A program made the translations under genes and the position numbers. Below, piece after piece: positions 5,588-53,792 of a stretch of 64,000 bases of DNA (its first letter is position 1; every line of letters begins with the position of its first letter). This stretch comes from Octopus vulgaris (Eukaryota). The DNA is taken from contig OX597830.1 of assembly GCA_951406725.2 (NCBI GenBank), forward strand, positions 51,212,001 through 51,276,000, given 5' to 3'. The notes below the pieces were generated by a model, which saw only the letters and a program-made list of their open reading frames with translations, ran no database searches and was not told where the DNA came from.

Positions 5588-5905
5588 ATGGTTAGAGCAT
5601 TGGACTCAGAATCATTAGGTAGTGAGTTCGATTCCTAGAGTGGGTCGTATGCTGTGTCCTTGAGCGAGACACTTTATTTCACGTTGCTCCAGTTCACTCA
5701 GCTATAGGAATGAGTTGCGACATCACTGGTATCAGAGCCGTATCGGCCTTTTCCTTTTCCTTGGATAACAGCAGTTGTATGGAGAGGAGAGGCTGATATG
5801 CTTGGGCGACTGCCGGTCTTCTATAAACAAGTTTTCCCGGAGTTGTGCCTCGGTGAGAAACTTTTCAGCTGCAATACCATAATCATTCATGACCGAAAAT
5901 TGTCT
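5588..5905 (+). mobile_element. SINE family A
   Basis: Colinear similarity to 13590-13921. Confidence 0.85.
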
Positions 5906-7554: not shown

Positions 7555-7610
<56 letters not shown>

Positions 7611-7666
7611 ATACAACTACTACTACTACTACTACAACAACTACTACTACTACTATTATTATTATT

Positions 7667-7985
7667 GAGTAAGAGAGCAGCGCATGCCAGCAAAGTGGCA
7701 CGTGGAACAATTATAAGAACCCAATATACCCATCATAACTACCTGTGAGATAAGGGTGCACCAGGCACATGCAGGTGGGGGGGGGGCATGTTAGAATATT
7801 CCTGAGGTCGAGTACCCGATCCCGCTCAAAAAGTCCCTGAATAACAGCTGTTTGAGGATGAAGAAAGAAACACCCAGATGTTTTTTCCAGGGTTGAATTA
7901 CTCAAACCACACAAATAATTTCTCTCAACACATGGCTATGGTGATGCTCCCCAACTACCTCTGCTCGTGATCGGAGATGCACGGA

Positions 7986-8036
<51 letters not shown>

Positions 8037-8402
8037 GCTACTAACTACTACTACTACTACTACTACTATTATTATTACTATTATTATTGAGTAAGAGAGC
8101 AGCGCATGCCAGCAAAGTGGCACGTGGAACAATTATAAGAACCCAATATACCCATCATAACTACCCGTGAGATAAGGGTGCACCAGGCACATGCAGTTGG
8201 GGGGCATGTTAAAATATTCCTGAGGTCGAGTACCCGATCCCGCTCAAAAAGTCCCTGAATAACAGCTGTTTAAGGATGAAGAAAGAAACACCCAGAGGAT
8301 TTTTTCCAGGGTTGAATTACTCAAACAACAAATAATTTCTCTCAACACATGGCTATGGTGATGCTCCCCAACTACCTCTGCTCGTGATCGGAGATGCACG
8401 GA

Positions 8403-8490
<88 letters not shown>

Positions 8491-8824
8491 TTATTATTAC
8501 TATTATTATTGAGTAAGAGAGCAGCGCATGCCGTCAAAGTGACACGTGGAACAATTATAAGAACCCAATATACCCATCATAACTACCCGTGAGATAAGGG
8601 TGCACCAGGCACATGCAGGTGGGGGCCATGTTAGAATATTCCTGAGGTCGAGTACCCGATCCCGCTCAAAAAGTCCCTGAATAACAGCTGTTTAAGGATG
8701 AAGAAAGAAACACCCAGAGGATTTTTTCCAGGGTTGAATTATTCAAACAACAAATAATTTCTCTTAACGCATGGCTATGGTGATGCTCCCCAACTACCTC
8801 TGCTCGTGATCAGAGATGCACGGA

Positions 8825-8855
<31 letters not shown>

Positions 8856-9163
8856 TTATTATTGAGTAACAAAGCAGCGCATGCCAGCAAAGTGACACGT
8901 GGAACAATTATAAGAACCCAATATACCCATCATAACTACCCGTGAGATAAGGGTGCACCAGGCACATGCAGGTGGGGGCCATGTTAGAATATTCCTGAGG
9001 TCGAGTACCCGATCCCGCTCAAAAAGTCCCTGAATAACAGCTGAAAGAAACACCCAGAGGTTTTTTCCAGGGGTGAATTACTCAAACCACAAATAATTTC
9101 TCTTAACACATGGCTATGATGATGCTCCCCAACTACATCTGCTCATGATCAGAGATGCACAGA

Positions 9164-9164
<1 letters not shown>
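7667..9164 (-). repeat. Tandem array of four 300-320-bp SINE-like units separated by (TAC)n/(TAT)n
   Basis: Units start at 7667, 8089, 8511 and 8864; homologous to the longer solo copy at 28113-28390. Strand inferred from the position of the (AAT) tail. Confidence 0.9.
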
Positions 9165-9220
<56 letters not shown>

Positions 9221-9230
9221 GCTGCTGCTG

Positions 9231-9282
<52 letters not shown>

Positions 9283-9324
9283 AACAGCTACTACTACGAC
9301 TGTTGCTACTATTACTATAATTAT

Positions 9325-10270: not shown

Positions 10271-10333
<63 letters not shown>

Positions 10334-11242
10334 TGTGACCCGCAGCAAACAAGCTGATGTTGACCAGAAGCAAACCCATCAGTGGCTGCGGAGCTCAGGG
10401 CTAAAAGCAGAGAGCGAAGGTTTCATCCTGGCTGCTCAAGACCAAAGCCTATTAACCCGGAACTACCAGGCCAATGTGATGAAAAATGGAGCAGACCCAA
10501 AATGCCGATTCTGCAACGACATGATTGAAACAGTGGACCACCTAATCTCTGGATGTAAAGTCTTAGCACCAGTGGAGTATAAATTAAGACATGACAGAGT
10601 TGGCCAATATCTCCACTGGCTAATAAGTCGGCATTACAATATCAAAACTGCCGACAAGTGGTATAATCACCACCCTGAGGCTGTAACTGAAGGAGAAAAT
10701 GTAACCATTCTGTGGGACTTTCCAGTACATACAAACCCAACCATCAAGGCCAATAAACCAGATATTGTTGTGAAAGACCAAAACAATAAAGTTTGCTTAT
10801 TGATCGACATGAGCATCCCCTGTGATCATAATATCTCAGCGAAAGAGTTTGACAAGCTCAGAAAATATAAAGACCTACTCATTGAAATTGAGAAAATGTG
10901 GCATCTCAAGGCGGTTACAATACCAGTGATCGTAGGAGCACTAGGAATGATCAAGAAGGGAACCGAAAATTATATGAGAATGATCCCTGGCTTACCATCC
11001 CTGCAAGAAGTGCAAAAGATTGTCTTAACTGGTACATCACACGTATTGAGAAGAGCATTGTCGATGTGAGAACTGTTGCTGCTCATGTATTTTAATTTAA
11101 CTTAAAAAAAAAAAAAAAAAATGAACGAACTACTGAGTTTGGTTTAATGGCCTACCAATATACACTATGAGTTTCTTTGCCCTAGGAGTCGGGAAGACAC
11201 TCGGCGAGAAATGGAAGAAAATTTGAAAGAGGAAAAAAAAAG
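10334..11242 (+). mobile_element. 5'-truncated R4/Dong-like non-LTR retrotransposon (CCHC plus restriction-like endonuclease) in (TAA)n
   Basis: Uninterrupted 244-aa frame 10335-11069: AAQDQ, CRFC..H..SGC, RHD, LWDF, KPDIV, K..KY, PVIVGALG; 3'UTR; (TAA)n on both sides. Confidence 0.9.
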
Positions 11243-13488: not shown

Positions 13489-13545
<57 letters not shown>

Positions 13546-13549
13546 GTAT

Positions 13550-13589
<40 letters not shown>

Positions 13590-13917
13590 GGCGCATGGCT
13601 CAGTGGTTAGAGCGTCGAGCTTACGATCGTGAGGTTGTGAGCTCGAATCCCGGACCGGGCTGCGTGTTGTGTTCTTGAGCAAAGCACTTTATTTCACGTT
13701 GCTCCAGTTCACTCAGTTGTAGAAATGAGTTGCGACGTCACTGGTGCCAAGCTGTATCGACCTTTGTCTTTCCCTTGGATAACACTGGTGGCGTGGAGAG
13801 GGGAGGCTGGTATGCATGGGCGACTGCTGGTCTTCCATAAACAACCTTGCCCGGACTTGTGTCTAGGAGGGTAACTTTCTAGGTGCAATCCCATGGTCAT
13901 TCATGACCGAAGGGGGT

Positions 13918-13921
<4 letters not shown>
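13590..13921 (+). mobile_element. tRNA-derived SINE family A
   Basis: A box tggctcagtgg, B-box-like gctcgaatccc; further copies at 5588-5905(+), 45947-46278(+), 53464-53792(-), partial 25155-25275(+). Confidence 0.88.
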
Positions 13922-13965
<44 letters not shown>

Positions 13966-14094
13966 TAATTTATATATAGAGGGCATTATTATACATACAT
14001 GCCACACGCTAAGAGGGACATTAGTCATTTCTACCAAAAGTTTTACTAATTCTACCCAAATGCAATTTTTCAAAGCAAGACATTTAAAAAATTA

Positions 14095-14143
14095 AGTCTT
14101 GTATCACCTGTGATTTCGTACTTACGTACTCATCAGCAAGACT
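14095..14143 (-). ncRNA. Type I hammerhead ribozyme, inverted second copy
   Basis: Exact reverse complement of 14271-14319, in the left arm of the fold-back. Confidence 0.85.
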
Positions 14144-14270
14144 GGTTCTGAACGTATCATAAATAAACGACCTCGTCTCTTCGAAGCTAAACAGCTAACT
14201 GTTCAACAACGAAGCACATGGGGGAGTTTACATATAATATATGTCGTTTATTTATGATACGTTCAGAACC

Positions 14271-14319
14271 AGTCTTGCTGATGAGTACGTAAGTACGAAA
14301 TCACAGGTGATACAAGACT
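14271..14319 (+). ncRNA. Type I hammerhead ribozyme, intact core
   Basis: agtcttg-CTGATGA-gtac(gtaa)gtac-GAAA-tcac(ag)gtga-TA-caagact: 7-bp stem I, 4-bp stem II with GNRA loop, stem III, AUA cleavage triplet (predicted cut after 14312). Confidence 0.88.
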
Positions 14320-14630
14320 TAATTTTTTAAATGTCTTGCTTTGAAAAATTGCATTTGGGTAGAATTAGTAAAATTTTTGATAGAAATGACTAATGTCCCT
14401 CTTAGCGTGTGGTTTGTATGTATAATAATGCCCTCTATATATAAATTAATATGTTCAATAAGAAAGAATTATTTTCGAAATTTTTATCTTATGAGGTTTT
14501 TCACGCTATCTACCTGATAATTTCTTGTTAAGATTCCTTATTAAGAGGTTATCCTTAATTGTTAAATAATTATATATATACATATATATATATACATACA
14601 TATATACAAGCACACATACACAGACACACA

Positions 14631-15453
14631 CAGGGCACGATGTTCAAATTGTCACCATTTATATTTTTAATTTCGTGCATGTGCATTGTTTGCTTTTGAT
14701 TTTGTTGACTACACAGTATAGTAGGGTCAGTTGGGCACGATCTGTGAGAAACATAGCACCTTGGCACAATGCACTCTGCCAGAAATTTGGAAACAACATG
14801 CTATACGCTTTGTCATTCGCGCCGGAATCTCCAATACGAACATTTCAGAGTGTTTGGGTGTCAGTCTGATGACATGCACCGAACGTGATGAAAATCAAAC
14901 ATCAAACATCCAGTCAACAAGTGATGGCGATGTTATGCCTCCATTCATCTTCTCACACGGTCTCAAACTCAATACAAAGGCCTTCATCAAGTGCTTGGAG
15001 GAGGTAGTGCTGCCCTGGGTCAAGAGGGTGGCTGCTGGAAGACCCTATGTCTGACAACATGACTCTGCACCATGCCACACAAACAGGAGCACCTAGTCAT
15101 CGCTGTCAGACAATTTCTGCGACCACATTACCCCTAACATCTGGTCACTTAACTCCCCAGACTGTAACCCTTTTCTGTGGGGCGTAATAGAACAAGAGAC
15201 CAAGAAAACTGCTTGTAAGACCAAAAATAGCAGCATTCACTAACTTAAGGAGACTGTCCAGATGAATTGCAGGTAATTCCGAAATGATCTGGAGGACGTG
15301 GTTGAAGCCAATGGTAATTTTATTGAATAAATTTACTCATTAGTATTTCAAAATATTTTTATGCAATTTCGGTAAATACACCTGTTAAAACGAGATGTCA
15401 GTATTATTTTCATTTTTGCGTAATTTAGACGACAATATATTCACCCCGCCCTG
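14631..15453 (+). mobile_element. Internally deleted Tc1/mariner element (maT/DD37D-like)
   Basis: Imperfect TIRs cagggc...ttgtc; MPPFIF..VLPWVKRVAAGRPYV*QHDSAPCH..W..NSPDCNP. Confidence 0.8.
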
Positions 15454-20880: not shown

Positions 20881-21377
<497 letters not shown>

Positions 21378-22121: not shown

Positions 22122-22369
22122 CTTAATGCTTAAAAGCGATCACCATGCAATAACTACAGAGAATTAGTCTAATATCGTGGCATATAAGCCCTCGATGGAA
22201 AAAATTAGGTTTTCCCGTTCGCATGACTCACTTGTCGCAAAAACGAAGAGTTGAGGGTTCGGGTCCCACGCCTACGGGAAAACCTACTTTTTTCCATAGA
22301 GGGCTTATATGTCCCATTTTTAGACTATTTTCTTTAGTCATTGCACGGTGATCGCTTATAAGATTTAAG
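22122..22369. repeat. Imperfect inverted repeat with mirror-oriented (AAT)n and (ATT)n flanks
   Basis: Arms about 22122-22218 and 22274-22369, 55-nt spacer; (AAT)n 21920-22110 and (ATT)n 22371-22550 extend the symmetry. Confidence 0.8.
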
Positions 22370-23730: not shown

Positions 23731-23952
23731 ATATATGCAAATATGAATAACTCGTGTTAGTTATGTTAGGTTTTGTACCTGCATTTCTGCAGATGCTGGT
23801 ACGGAATACATTTATGGTAGTAATACAACTTATACAAGCCCGCCTGCCTGTATCTATTTATACAGACACACATATACACTTGACTGTATGTGTATATATG
23901 TGTGCGAGGGTTCGCGGGGGTGTGTATATATATATATATATATATTTATATA

Positions 23953-24178
23953 CTTTATTTAAAGCAGCAGAAAATTCAACAAAACCTGTTACTCTGAGTT
24001 TCCCGTTGCCGTTAATCGGACAGTCCATTCTAGCAAAAACTGTCCGATGAACGGCAACGGGAAACTCAGAGTAACAGGTTTTGTTGAATTTTCTGCTGCT
24101 TTAAATAAAGCATATTACTCTACCACTGGTATTTGAGTACTCTTTTTCCACCTTGTTTCACATTTATGTGTTTACTCC

Positions 24179-24180
<2 letters not shown>
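23953..24180 (+). mobile_element. Fold-back element with hammerhead motif in (TA)n
   Basis: 72-bp arms 23953-24024 and 24039-24110 (1 mismatch), 14-nt spacer, 70-nt tail, then (TA)n. Confidence 0.72.
24040..24077 (+). ncRNA. Minimal hammerhead ribozyme variant (U4C)
   Basis: ctgt-CCGATGA-acggcaacgg-GAAA-ctcagag-TA-acag; near-palindromic stem III, GUA triplet, very short stem II. Confidence 0.65.
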
Positions 24181-27148: not shown

Positions 27149-27346
27149 TATAAATTTACCGTTTAAGATTAAAGTACCAGTGAAGTACTGTAGTGGATGC
27201 GATGTGACTGACTTTCTTTTCTTTGAAGTATGTCACTTTGTGACTTAGGGATTCCCAAAAGTACCCTCAGGGAGTCTTCTATTCAGGGGAATTATTGATA
27301 GTTGGTCTTTCTGTACATCCTTCGTTATGTAACATTTATTATTATA

Positions 27347-27517
27347 GGCGTAGGAGTGGCTGTGTGGTAAGTAGCTTGCTTACGAACCACATGATCCGGG
27401 TTCAGTCCCACCGCGTGTCACCTTGGGCAAGTGTCTTCTACTATAGCCTCGGGTCGACCAAAGCCTTGTGAGTGGATTTGGTAGACGGAAACTGAAAGAA
27501 ACCCGTCGTATGTATGT

Positions 27518-27601
<84 letters not shown>

Positions 27602-27832
27602 GAGTGTATATATGTTTGTGTGTCTACGTTTGTCTTCCCCCAACATCAGATGACAACCGATGCGGGTGTGTTTACGTCCCCGTAACATAGCGGTTCGGCA
27701 AAAGTGACCGACGATAAAATAGGTACTAGGCTTACAAAGAATAAATCCTGGGGTCGATTTGCTCGAGTAAAAAGGCGGTGCTCCAGCATGGCCACAATCA
27801 AATGACTGAAACAAGTAGAAGACTGAAAGAGT
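27347..27832 (+). mobile_element. tRNA-derived SINE family B with internal (TA)/(TG) microsatellite
   Basis: ggagtggctgtgtggtaag..gggttcagtccca; matches 38277-38746 and 39139-39560. Confidence 0.85.
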
Positions 27833-38276: not shown

Positions 38277-38502
38277 TTTTACTCTCTTTCTCTTTTACTT
38301 GTTAAAGTCGTTTGACTGCGGCCATGCTGGAGCACCTCCTTTTAGTCGAACAAATCGACCCCAGTACTTATTTTTTATAAGCCTAGTACTTACTTATTCT
38401 ATCGGTCTCTTATGCCGAACCGGTAAGTTACGGCGGACGTAAAGACACCAGCATCAGTTGTCAAGCGATGTTGGGGGGGGGGGTACAAACACAGACACAC
38501 AA

Positions 38503-38581
<79 letters not shown>

Positions 38582-38746
38582 TACGACGGTCTTCTTTCAG
38601 TTTCCGTCTACCATATCCACTCACAAGGCTTTGGTCGGCCCGAAGCTATAGTAGAAGACACTTGCCCAAGGTGCCACGCAGTGGGACTGAACCTGGGACC
38701 GTTTTGTTGGTAAGCGAGCTACTTACCACACAGCCACTCCTGCGCC
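38277..38746 (-). mobile_element. SINE family B
   Basis: Reverse complement of the family B sequence. Confidence 0.85.
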
Positions 38747-39138
38747 TATATTTGTAAAACAAAAAACACATCGAAAATTCATGGAACAGAAATGTTTATG
38801 CCTGAACAGTGAAAGCAGCAAATAATGATCTTTTTCCACTATATTTTAGGAGAGAGGTCAAGTCGATTATATTCGACTCTATTATCCAACAGGCATTTAT
38901 TTTATCAAGCTTGAAAGGATGAAAGGCAAAGTCGACCTTCGCTGAATTTGACCTCAGAATGGAAAAACGTGGATCAAATATCCCAAAGCATTTTCCCCAG
39001 CATTCTAACGAATCTTTCAAACCACTGCCGTTTTCTAAATCATAAGACATTACACACATATAAGTCTTTTTTCTTATGACCCCAGGAGCTGGTAGGTTGA
39101 TGAGAATCGCAGGTGATTCGAGATAATATATATGTAAT

Positions 39139-39302
39139 GCGCAGGAGTGGCTGTGTGGTAAGTAGCTTGTTTACCAACCACATGGTTCCGGGTTCAGTCC
39201 CACTGCGTGGCACCTTGGGCTAGTGTCTTCTACTATAGCCTCGGGCCGACCAAAGCCTTGTGAGTGGATTTGGTAGACGGAAACTGAAAGTAGCTCGTCG
39301 TA

Positions 39303-39340
<38 letters not shown>

Positions 39341-39560
39341 TGTGTGTGGTCGTGTGTTTGTCCCCCAAGCATTGCTTGACAACCGATGCTGGTGTGTTTA
39401 TGTCCCCGTTACTTAGCGGTTCGGCAAAGAGACCGATAGGATAAGTACTGGGCTTACAAAGAATAAGTCCCGGGGTCGAGTTGCTCGATTAAAGGCGGTG
39501 CTCCAGCATGGCCGCAGTCAAATGACTGAAACAAGTAAAAGAGTAAAGAGTAAAGAGTAA
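39139..39560 (+). mobile_element. SINE family B
   Basis: Apparently full-length copy with gagtaaa-repeat tail. Confidence 0.85.
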
Positions 39561-40194: not shown

Positions 40195-41655
40195 GTGCTA
40201 GAAGATCGCTGGGACTGAGACACCCCTCAGCTTCTCTCGAAGCATGTCTTTAGGAGGTCAATCTGATATAAAACCAAATATGGACGGAATGGCATTGGAC
40301 ATTTTAGGGATCTTTGGTTTGTGCTAGGGATCATGGATGTTCACCCTGCGCTCGAAAAACAAAGAGACTTTTTATTTTACAAAATCTGGATGGTACTTGA
40401 ACATTTCATGGTGCAATGTGCGCACTCTGTTGGATAACAAGAGTGATTGTAGGCCTCAAAGACGCACTGCACTTGTTGCTCAAGAGCTTAACCGCTATAA
40501 CTTTGATATAGCTGTACTTTCAGAAACTCGTATAGAAATTGATGATCAGCTTGAGGAATTAGAAGGTGCATACACCTCTTTTTGGAAGAGGAGACTGGCG
40601 GAGGAGAGCAGAGAGGCTGGTGTTGGTTTTGCTGTTCGATCTGATATCCTTAAAAAGTAGGAAGAGCTTCCTGTTCTTATAAATGAAAGTCTCATGACTC
40701 TACGGTTACACATGAAAAGTGGGCGGTTTGCTACTCTAATAAGTGCCTATGCACCTACTTTGACTAGTTGTGATGAAGATAAAACTATTTTTCATACCCA
40801 GCTGAGAGCTATATTTAGGAAAATCTCCAATTCTGATAAGGTTATTCTGCTGGGAGATTTCGATGTCAGGGCTGGAACAGGCAGGCAAACATGGAACACT
40901 CTAGCATGTTTTGGGGTAGGGAAAATGAACAGCAATAGTCTCATGCTACTGAAGCTTCGCGATGAACATGGACTTTACATCGCAAGCGCTCATTTTAATG
41001 AACACATCAACGGGGATACATTCAAAATCTAAAGTTTGGCACTTGCTGGATTATGTCATCATCCGCAACGTGACATCTATGACATTTCTAATGTCAACTC
41101 CTTTCATGGATCGGAATGCTGGACAGACCACAGTCTGGTGCGAACAAAGTTCCGGATGATGATTAAAGTGAAAGAGAGAAGAGGCCCAGTTGGCATTCCT
41201 CAGCGTCTGAATGTTCACAAGATGTACGATGCTGTGTTAAGGAAAAAAAACTTCAGATTCGCTTGTCTAGCATTGAAAATACTACAGTAGAAGATTTTTG
41301 AGACCAGGTTCTTCAATGTGCTGCTGAGGTTTAGCGACTATTGGTTGTAAAGCGCTATGCCCACAATGTATTGGTGCACTGAGGACTTTCAGCTGTGCAA
41401 CGAAATCTAGCACATGCCCACCATAGCAGTGTAAAATCCCTACTGCAGCGATCTCTCAGGAAGATGCAGAACATATGGTGAAAGGATCTTGCTCGTGATG
41501 TTCAGGCTGCTGCAAATGATAGCAAGAAGCTTCACAGTCTTATGATGCAAGCTTATGGGGGCCTAAGAGCTCTGCATCAGCTCCTTTGCTTTCCAAGAAG
41601 ACTTCTACTCTATTTACTAAATCGACAGAAATCACAGGTCGCTGAATTGAACAAA
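40195..41655 (+). mobile_element. RTE-clade LINE relic (APE endonuclease region)
   Basis: ORFs 40337-41290: NVRTLLD..RPQRRTALVAQELNRYNFDIAVLSETR, GVGFAV, ISAYAPT, LLGDF, HLLDYVI, CWTDH; stops and frameshifts. Confidence 0.9.
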
Positions 41656-43457: not shown

Positions 43458-43519
<62 letters not shown>

Positions 43520-43524
<5 letters not shown>

Positions 43525-43553
43525 AATTAATATCCAATTTTTCACCCTCATTT

Positions 43554-43599
<46 letters not shown>

Positions 43600-43755
43600 A
43601 AATGAGGGTGAAAAATTGGATATTAATTTGATAACATCAATTTTAACACCAATGGTCTAACATATACAAAAAACTAAGATTCAGTAAATAGTATTTCATA
43701 CATAAATATACATGTGTGTGTGTGTATGTGTGTGTGTGTGTGTGCATGCGTGTGC

Positions 43756-43805
<50 letters not shown>

Positions 43806-43899
43806 TACTATTTACTGAACCTCAGTTTTTTTATATGCCAGACCACTGGTGTTAAAATTGATGATATGAAATCAATATCCAATTTTTTTACCCTCATTT

Positions 43900-43901
<2 letters not shown>
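43520..43901. repeat. Nested inverted repeats of one element terminus, each abutting (TA)n
   Basis: 43520-43555 and 43598-43633 are a perfect IR around an (AT)n spacer; 43598-43698 and 43801-43901 are an IR of roughly 88% identity around (TG)n. Confidence 0.85.
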
Positions 43902-43993
<92 letters not shown>

Positions 43994-44321
43994 CATATAG
44001 TGCAATATTGATAATAACGAGAATAGAGGTTTTTCACATCCATAAGTTTATTTAACAGTTATTTACAACATACTTCCCGCACCTACACGTGTTTCAACTG
44101 CACGCTGATATAGAACTATTTCTTAGTTTCATCATTTGGTTTATATTTCACTCTTTGTTAAACCCACACAAGGGTTTTTCCCTCATGAAACCAGAATTCT
44201 CTACACCTGAAGAAATTCGGTTTTAGTCTGCAAGCCGCGAGCGTTAACAGCTCAGAATTTAGATTGAGGGGCTTCAATACAAATATCCTACCTTTATAAC
44301 CTAGGACCTAAGATACATGTA

Positions 44322-44530: not shown

Positions 44531-45946
44531 TATATTTGCGTGTTTCTTGCATACAACGTAAAACAATATTACGCACTCTTACACACACATAACCACATAT
44601 ATATGTACGTATTTTTGTGTAAGTATATATGTATGTATATATGTATGTATACATCTGCGTAAGTAGTCATATATATTCATATATATATACGCTTGTATGA
44701 GAATGTGCATGTTTGTGAATGTATATACTGGTTTGTAGGTACACAGGTAACAATAGAATACTGGGTTTGTATGGTATGTTGGGCGTCGACTGGTGTTGAT
44801 GTGATATATAAAGATTTTGTCCCGGACTTAAAAATCATTTGATTGTTAAACGGCAAAGTTATGTGACTTGCCTATTTAATTCTGTTTCACTCACCTAGAT
44901 CTGGCCAGATAACTACAAGGACAATACGATTAAACAGATTTAGCTGAAATGGTTTTGTTTTCGTGGTTTTTTGCATAGCCCAGTGTCATTGCTGATGAAC
45001 AGAGCAGACCTCTTGGCACCTCTTGGCTAAACTAATTGCTGCGATGCACACTGCTATAGAACTAGAACAAGCCATAAATAACTCCAAGTAACTGAGGGTC
45101 AATATTCCACAGCCTGAAACGCGTTGTTGTTGGTGGTGTTTATGGTGCTGGTGTTGGTGAAAGTAGCTATGGTATTAGTGATGGTAGCGGTGGTCATGTT
45201 GGTGGTAGTGTTAATGGTAGAGGTGGTAATGGTGTTGGTAGTGGTGGTGGCAGCAGTGGTAAATATTATTGTTGCTATTTTAGCCGTAGGTCAATTTCCG
45301 TTGAGCAGGCCAGCCATAACCATCCATCCCAGATTTTGTGGATGGGGAATGCATCTAAGACTTTATTACCTAATGTATCGTTCCTGTTTCATTTTTTTAA
45401 AACCATAAGGGTATGATCTGAGACATATTTGGCTATTACTTCTAGGAGTCCTGAAACCGAATAGATTCCATCTTCGAGCTGTTGTCGGAGTGCCTTGTGG
45501 TATTAAGTTATTTCTTTTCATGTTTGGGTTCGAATCCCGTCGAAGATGATTACTGAAGAAATCTTATCCTTCTATTGCTGTTTAAGCTCACGTGAGCACT
45601 GATTGAGTAAACATATAAGCAAAAGACGCTCCAATCCAGTCTTGACCACCATGTCTATTTGTACACATAGTGCTCCGCTAGCCAATATATGTTGCCTTTT
45701 TTAAGTGGCTACAGTGAGATGAAGCACTTTGGTTGCTATTTCTAACGGATCGAGAGACTATGTCCTAGACTTTCCGTGATGGGCTCGTATTTTTTTCACG
45801 TTAGCCTTGACTGAGCAGACCATCCACCCGTGACCGTCCTGTATTTTTCTCTGTTATTGTTTATCTAGAGCCTCCTTTTTCTAATGTATCCCTCCAATGA
45901 GTAATTTGAGAGATATTTCCCTTCCCGTACTGGTAGGGCCTGTAAG

Positions 45947-46278
45947 GCGGATGGTTCAGTAGTTAGAGCGTCGCGTTCACACTCACGAGGTAGTGAGTTC
46001 GATTCCCGGACAGTGTTGTGTTATGCTCTGGACCAAAGCACTTTATTTCACGTTGCTCTAGTTCACTCAGCTGTAGAAATGAGTTGCAGCATCACTGGTG
46101 CCAAGCTGTATCAGCGTTTCCCTTTCTCTTGGATAACATGAGTGGCGTGAAGAGCGGAGGCTGGTATGCATGGGCGACTGCTGGTCTTCCATAAACAATC
46201 TTGCTCGGACTTGTACCTCGGAGGGGAACATTCTAGGTGCAATTCCATGGTCATTTATGGCCGAAGCGGGGATCTTTA
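45947..46278 (+). mobile_element. SINE family A
   Basis: Colinear similarity to 13590-13921. Confidence 0.85.
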
Positions 46279-53463: not shown

Positions 53464-53792
53464 CCCCCTTCGGTCAGACACTGACCATGGGTTTGCACCT
53501 AGAGAGTTACCCTCTGAGGCACAAGTCTGGGCAAGGTTGTTTTATGGAAGACCAGCAGTCGCCCATGCATACCGGCCTCCCCTCTCCACGTCACCGATGT
53601 TGTCCAAGGGAAAGGCAAGGGCCGATACAGCTTGGCACCTGTGACGTCGCAACTCATTTCTACAGCTGAGTGAACTGGAGCAACGTGAAATAAAGTGTCT
53701 TGCTCAAGAACACAACACGCAGCCCGCTCCGGGATTCGAGCTCACAACCTCACGATCGTAAGCTCGATGCTCTAACCACTGAGCCACGCGCC
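53464..53792 (-). mobile_element. SINE family A
   Basis: Reverse-complement similarity to 13590-13921. Confidence 0.88.

Follow-up and report, generated by a model that had tools for sequence, protein, structure and literature searches.

A head-to-head pair of repeat ends with a hammerhead-shaped motif on each strand, in a TA run of Octopus vulgaris, as a probable Penelope-like insertion

In a 64-kb stretch of Octopus vulgaris DNA (contig OX597830.1, positions 51,212,001 to 51,276,000; called the window here), which as a whole is animal DNA rich in microsatellites and transposons, one hammerhead-shaped motif is present on both strands within a long inverted repeat. This leads to the question how such a structure arose and what its ribozymes could do there. 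Region 13960-14570 of the window holds two copies of one repeat end, placed head to head within a TA run. Its parts, and a second member of the same family, are as follows.

13921-13959, no strand: left (TA)n target microsatellite
13960-14171, minus strand: inverted arm; its element-3' end lies at an internal AT-rich site, about 116 nt before the family 3' end
14095-14143, minus strand: type I hammerhead-shaped motif, minus copy, with the predicted cut between 14102 and 14101
14172-14242, minus strand: spacer of 71 nt that apparently continues the inverted arm into upstream element sequence (contig evidence)
14243-14454, plus strand: direct arm, whose 5' truncation lies 70 nt upstream of the predicted cut
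14271-14319, plus strand: type I hammerhead-shaped motif, plus copy; stem III is self-complementary (predicted dimer type), and the cut is predicted after 14312
14455-14570, plus strand: one-sided 3' tail, 111-116 nt, common to the second family copy
14571-14606, no strand: right (TA)n target microsatellite, imperfect
20947-21222, plus strand: second family member, with 86-nt identical arms, no spacer and a 104-nt one-sided tail, in (TA)n

The two arms (13960-14171 and 14243-14454) are 212 nt each, are 98% complementary and have 71 nt between them. They differ at four of the 212 positions (14374, 14380, 14413 and 14414 of the right arm), none of which is inside the ribozyme motif. The initial annotation had described 212-bp arms of about 98% identity embedded in (TA)n, and both points were reproduced, the runs being those at 13921-13959 and 14571-14606; with 4 of 212 positions different, its word "young" is fair. 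The folding energy of the 621-nt region is -387.8 kcal/mol (z -33.7, 20 shuffles), and the minus strand of the spacer is predicted to form a hairpin of its own (z -3.5). When all frames were checked no ORF of at least 120 aa was found to overlap 13960-14570, and the three ribozyme-sense frames of each arm were filled with stops and had no endonuclease motif that could be seen by eye, which agrees with the lack of coding capacity claimed earlier. A target-site duplication is not readable within (TA)n.

The 49-nt motif at 14271-14319 on the plus strand and that at 14095-14143 on the minus strand are identical letter for letter. The motif is built of a 7-bp stem I, the core CUGAUGA, a 4-bp stem II with a GUAA loop of the GNRA type, GAAA and the triplet AUA, and its stem III has 5 bp with a 2-nt loop or, as a monomer, 4 bp with a 4-nt loop. 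In the usual hammerhead core numbering the conserved core is complete (C3, U4, G5, A6, N7, G8, A9, G12, A13, A14, A15.1-U16.1 and H17), and the three helices of 7, 4 and 4-5 bp, with the ends in stem I, give the type I layout. The claim of a complete type I motif and its exact inverse is thus borne out, and the word "intact" is to be taken as a statement about the sequence only. A hammerhead descriptor gave two matches in the 64-kb window, both inside 13960-14570, and at least one match in 1 of 60 dinucleotide shuffles. The check that had been proposed with the Rfam model Hammerhead_1 came out against the motif: at the gathering threshold there were no matches to this model in the window and none among the 22 matches of a 2-kb scan, and in a 101-nt scan the score over the full model length was 18.6 bits (E 0.021), below the threshold of 34. 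Because the short stem III and the long stem II of the Rfam model misfit the motif, this result weakens the statement that it is a member of the Rfam family and not the statement that it works like a hammerhead. Among the 40 variants listed of 130, which come from few contigs, N7 (14132), a free position, is the one core position that changes, and the stem I variants at 14097 and 14141 hit one pair, which would be G-U if both are on the same copy.

When the motif was folded as a monomer, the active fold was at -10.2 kcal/mol compared to -12.3 kcal/mol for the minimum, that is, 2.1 kcal/mol above it, and the probability of stem III was 0.02; in the minimum fold core bases are paired to the 5' strand of stem III. 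The stem III region pairs with itself at -12.6 kcal/mol, and when two monomers were cofolded the double hammerhead was the minimum-energy structure, at -32.4 kcal/mol against twice -12.3 (-24.6) kcal/mol. The motif is therefore predicted to work best as a dimer-type ribozyme made of two RNAs, a design which has been described for hammerheads of Penelope-like elements (PLEs) in the accessible text of PMC4209133 and PMC6765202. The two motifs are on opposite strands and hence, as had been stated earlier, a transcript of either strand has one sense ribozyme and its antisense, which means that no dimer can form in cis. The head-to-head layout also means that the antisense arm is transcribed before the ribozyme in read-through RNA of both directions. 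A helix of 28 bp (-43.5 kcal/mol) is able to form before the first ribozyme base is transcribed, and the active fold inside the read-through hairpin costs 72-78 kcal/mol. In transcripts that start within 14144-14270, on either strand, the active fold costs only 2.1-2.6 kcal/mol. These figures are equilibrium predictions that leave tertiary contacts and proteins aside, but the margin is large, and the hairpin is predicted to beat the ribozyme fold clearly in read-through RNA. The competition between self-cleavage and hairpin formation that had been envisaged for such RNA is therefore not supported; the ribozyme is predicted to be silent in it and free only in transcripts starting between the motifs (14144-14270). 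Most likely, the copy at 13960-14570 is inert.

Two features that the initial annotation did not describe, the one-sided tail of 116 nt and the origin of the spacer, bear on how the structure arose. The direct arm runs 116 nt further, to the right TA run, and the inverted arm has no such tail. Contigs of four public sequencing runs, out of 24 listed, were aligned to 13500-15000; in this listing, which covers 12 studies, 20 of the 24 runs contain part of the stretch, none contains at least half of the 39 words, and no run containing it is given there as RNA. The spacer was covered by contigs in all four runs, one contig spans 14098-14236 and so includes left arm and spacer together, and in two of the four runs 5 and 7 contigs, as listed, have loose ends behind 14242. 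This contig and the loose ends, few contigs in all, suggest that the spacer is upstream element sequence of the inverted arm and that 14242/14243 is the new junction of the insertion; none of the 32 pieces listed, of 254,297, bridges it. In element coordinates, with the spacer assigned to the inverted arm, the inverted copy runs from +211 back to -71, and the direct copy that follows it goes from 0 to about +327. On this assignment each arm has sequence that is absent from the other, at opposite ends, and neither would be a plain copy of the other. This double asymmetry points to what would be two reverse-transcription events from one RNA family. Both arms depart from the family majority at 14362 and 14363, and these shared departures indicate that they come from one source or subfamily. 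The private changes, at 14040 in the left arm and at 14413-14414 in the right arm, are read as slight later drift or miscopying after the common source.

Tens of thousands of contigs were found on 13500-15000 in each of the three large runs, and the tail bins were among the deep ones. The summed depth at 14469-14519, which is not a copy number, was 275,000-659,000 in the three runs as against 6,000-34,000 in the two ribozyme-core bins. This profile suggests an abundant and mostly 5'-truncated family, with the proviso that divergence near the ribozyme would look alike. Summed depth, again not a copy number, was also seen to fall several-fold or more from 14303-14366 to 14252-14315, and likewise in the mirror bins; it may be that numerous copies of the family terminate, or become divergent, close to the cleavage site. 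In a run guessed to be RNA (X11) contigs lie over the family and the change spectrum resembles that of the DNA runs with no A-to-G excess, and contigs cannot reveal expression or editing.

The same layout is found twice more in the window. Over 223 aligned columns, part of the TA run being counted, the family member at 20947-21222 has 75% identity to 13960-14570. Its 3' end is the same, its truncation lies downstream of the ribozyme, and its inverted arm begins at most about 12 nt from the AT-rich start site of the inverted arm of 13960-14570. A profile made from both family copies detected only their four arms in the window. The other case, 23948-24180, is unrelated in sequence and also lies in (TA)n, with 77-nt arms, a 14-nt spacer and a 65-nt one-sided tail; its hammerhead has one core change (U4 to C), and its stems I and III match Hydra-clade rows of a published table. 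Both of its arms turn immediately 5' of stem I. At 43504-44040 there is a further TA-embedded inverted structure, with arms 43598-43696 and 43803-43901 (89%) around (TG)n and an additional short inverted piece at about 43504-43558. It was considered as a family member since it has a 12-nt tail motif at 44026, but it was rejected because the two-copy profile misses it at E 1. An old palindrome (74%) lies at 22134-22357 between (AAT)n and (TTA)n, and no hammerhead was found in it.

In the published work, which is cited here and below from the accessible parts of each paper, PLE insertions typically consist of an inverted 5'-truncated copy and a one-sided tail (PMC8557442; PMC3846280). Nearly all Hydra-clade families target (TA)n and carry canonical hammerheads (PMC8557442, Craig et al. 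2021), and the clade is further marked in that paper by RWK, DKT and CxCX5C motifs, the lack of CCHH and the RT phylogeny. The Hydra table of that paper has 25 families with a stem III of 3-4 bp and a loop III of 1-3 nt, and in it Penelope-13_HM, owing to its inverted 5' copy, has a hammerhead entered for both strands. The rows for C-terminal EN+ PLEs of this clade that are closest to 13960-14570 are those of Hydra-2_Amil, Penelope-1_NV and Penelope-13_HM. The (TA)n target, the canonical-type hammerhead and the loop III of 1-3 nt are shared with the clade, and these are common to other clades and not diagnostic alone. Also shared are the distance of the hammerhead from the 3' end, which is about 320 nt here and 87-425 nt in 24 of the 25 families (one, listed at the 5' end, being omitted), and the self-complementary stem III with a tiny loop. 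The 4-bp stem II with a GNRA loop right after CUGAUGA is found in 3 of the 25 families and the A at the cleavage site in 11 of 25, and Penelope-13_HM resembles the locus in that an inverted 5'-truncated copy puts its hammerhead on both strands. Unlike the clade, 13960-14570 has U-A at 15.2-16.2, where the accessible table has C-G in 25 of 25, a stem III of 5 bp instead of 3-4 and no reading frame that was seen in it, and the hammerhead of Hydra-1_Obim as given there differs in sequence from its motif. The copy works like a Hydra-type PLE stub and is a putative member of the clade; no RT or GIY-YIG reading frame is linked to its family.

With EN+ PLEs more generally (Penelope/Poseidon, PMC3846280; the anole element PAc, PMC11167929) the locus shares a head-to-head inverted 5'-truncated copy with a tail at one end, an AT-rich target, two start points and a ribozyme that is intact within the copy. 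An inverted 5'-truncated copy beside the 5' end, a hammerhead near the 3' end and a dispersed 5'-truncated family were all found here. It differs in that the tail of 104-116 nt in the two family copies is about three times longer than the 30-40 nt in the published accounts, in that the target-site duplication cannot be read and, compared to PAc as described in PMC11167929, in that the ribozyme lacks the start codon of a long frame. Two opposite-strand hammerheads 100-700 bp apart with a dimer-type design were attributed in 2014 to truncated PLEs of Schistosoma (Cervera and de la Pena 2014, PMC4209133); those are minimal, with a long helix II and no helix III, whereas here stem II has 4 bp and stem III is self-complementary with 5 bp. 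Animal non-LTR retrozymes are, like this repeat, non-coding and low in GC with a type I hammerhead (PMC7229834; 10.64898/2026.07.22.740005). The same two sources describe them as at least two head-to-tail units, each with a hammerhead, and neither a head-to-tail tandem nor two same-strand ribozymes are present at the two family copies in the window. An origin of PLE type is thus supported by the TA target, the inverted 5'-truncated copy, the one-sided tail, the Hydra-like hammerhead, the abundance of the family and the recurrence of the layout twice more in the window. Of the earlier proposal of a non-autonomous PLE- or retrozyme-like insertion, the PLE part is supported on the grounds of target, layout, tail and motif; the non-autonomous or retrozyme part is not borne out, as no tandem unit was found at the locus and one stub cannot separate a truncated autonomous element from a passenger.

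A probable explanation, to which we give about three chances in four, is that a Penelope-like enzyme, probably of the Hydra clade, cleaved the TA run and reverse-transcribed the 3' end of its RNA onto both DNA ends. Its GIY-YIG endonuclease would cut (TA)n on both strands; one DNA end would prime reverse transcription at the RNA's 3' end and give 14570 to 14243, and the other would prime at the AT-rich internal site about 116 nt upstream and give 13960 to 14242. Both cDNAs would terminate early and the ends would then be joined, and the hammerhead would be a passenger of the terminal repeat of the element. As both cDNAs crossed an intact cleavage site, the template would have been uncut or re-ligated RNA. 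Two-ended priming is what we infer from the anatomy of 13960-14570 together with the behaviour of the anole PLE protein, for in the accessible text of PMC11167929 purified PAc cuts and extends both strands, favouring DNA that is AT-rich, two adjacent internal start sites define the tail, the protein is modelled as a dimer and uncut RNA is used.

A possible though doubtful alternative keeps the same insertion chemistry and takes as template a non-coding RNA of retrozyme type, perhaps a circular one of about 490-540 nt, which makes use of PLE enzymes. It would fit the 401 nt of the family that were seen to have no coding frame, the compact 4-bp stem II with its GNRA loop and the proposal that animal retrozymes derive from PLE pLTRs (10.64898/2026.07.22.740005, accessible part), and an intact ribozyme is also restored when a circle is re-ligated. 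Against it, there is no tandem unit at either family copy in the window, and what lies upstream of the spacer in other copies, as judged by eye from the loose ends, is unlike the tail. The steep fall of depth from tail to ribozyme speaks for 5' truncation as well, weakly, since divergence looks alike. It is unlikely, to a higher degree, that one cDNA folded back and primed on itself, as has been proposed for Penelope palindromes. Palindromic inverted junctions are read in this way in PMC3846280, as far as its accessible text goes, and 20947-21222, with identical arms and no spacer, fits self-priming equally well. However, a fold-back primed at the tail leaves its loop on the arm that bears the tail, and here the loop is apparently on the tail-less arm, and a fold-back of a tail-less cDNA cannot give the 116-nt tail without an extra template switch. 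Twin priming of the L1 type inverts the upstream part of the element; it was rejected because it does not duplicate the same 212 nt.

It is very improbable that the structure is a working RNA device in which cleavage competes with double-stranded RNA, or which feeds ADAR or Dicer and so regulates the family or a host gene. A near-perfect duplex of 212 bp is indeed expected in read-through RNA, and starts inside 14144-14270 leave the ribozyme free at a cost of 2.1-2.6 kcal/mol, but the antisense arm always comes first, the active fold then costs 72-78 kcal/mol and the predicted dimer is impossible in cis with one sense copy per transcript. Moreover, the differences between the arms contain no one-strand run of A-to-G changes, and the layout recurs as ordinary insertion debris. 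An ADAR scar in the arms was itself considered and rejected, as there are only four differences and they are not confined to one strand. We give hardly any credence to a MITE-like or fold-back DNA element of which the hairpin transposes as a whole unit: the long inverted arms and the TA flanks would suit it, but the one-sided tail means that the inverted repeat is not terminal, the second copy at 20947-21222 turns elsewhere and other copies diverge from the sequence at 14242. An artefact of assembly or library is just as implausible. The junction is unbridged among the contigs listed, and structures of this kind are troublesome for assemblies (PMC8557442, accessible text); against this, the arms differ at four positions with private changes on both sides, and the geometry of the tail is repeated in two other places and in two families.

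A bolder idea, which we think improbable, builds on the two-ended Penelope-type insertion preferred here and gives the hammerhead template pairing as its main job over cutting. Stem III would then be an RNA dimerisation signal uniting two templates in a dimeric Penelope-type complex, each primed from one end of the TA run, with fixed starts about 110 nt apart. If this were so, head-to-head stubs would record an insertion by two RNAs and two enzymes, and 13960-14570, with extra sequence on each arm, would be a clean test case. Against such pairing, Naiad elements without canonical hammerheads still form inverted insertions (PMC8557442), and in the accessible account of PAc insertion in vitro is unaffected by core mutants, which leave stem III pairing aside (PMC11167929).

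The family was searched for in several collections. Exact family patterns had no matches in metagenome contigs and none in viral contigs, which are non-animal collections and carry little weight. Four short motifs had no matches in the PMC8557442 supplement with the Hydra and Naiad consensus sequences, in an exact search in one orientation in which line breaks may mask a match. The family was not found in the open literature searched or in that supplement. A hammerhead on both strands is already published as part of this layout, and 13960-14570 adds an ordinary further example of it, of a family not itself found in print. Taken alone the locus matters little, since many such stubs exist. It is of value as test material, as two-ended priming can be told from self-priming by its double asymmetry and its motif offers a clean prediction for monomer against dimer. 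Both the formation of inverted PLE insertions and the role of PLE hammerheads are named as open questions in the accessible text of PMC8557442 and PMC11167929.

Other repeats lie around the insertion. Directly to its right, 14627-15453 has terminal inverted repeats of about 27 nt and a broken frame, which resembles the catalytic region of a Tc1/mariner transposase. Directly to its left, 13587-13916 is a dispersed repeat of very high abundance whose head is tRNA-like, probably a SINE, that is also present at 5589-5897, 45943-46270 and 53464-53792. Stop-free frames of 245 and 123 aa at 10332-11069 and 40661-41032 have weak Pfam matches, below the cutoff, to zf-RVT and Exo_endo_phos_2 and are likely to be the ends of non-LTR retrotransposons. 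At 7559-9317 there is a tandem array with a unit of 353-422 nt that includes an (ACT)n run, in which the scans found no hammerhead core. Finally, a dispersed repeat at 38296-39537 has two inverted copies, 91% identical over 223 nt and about 390 nt apart, with a third copy at 27335-27831, and if transcribed it would be another source of long double-stranded RNA.
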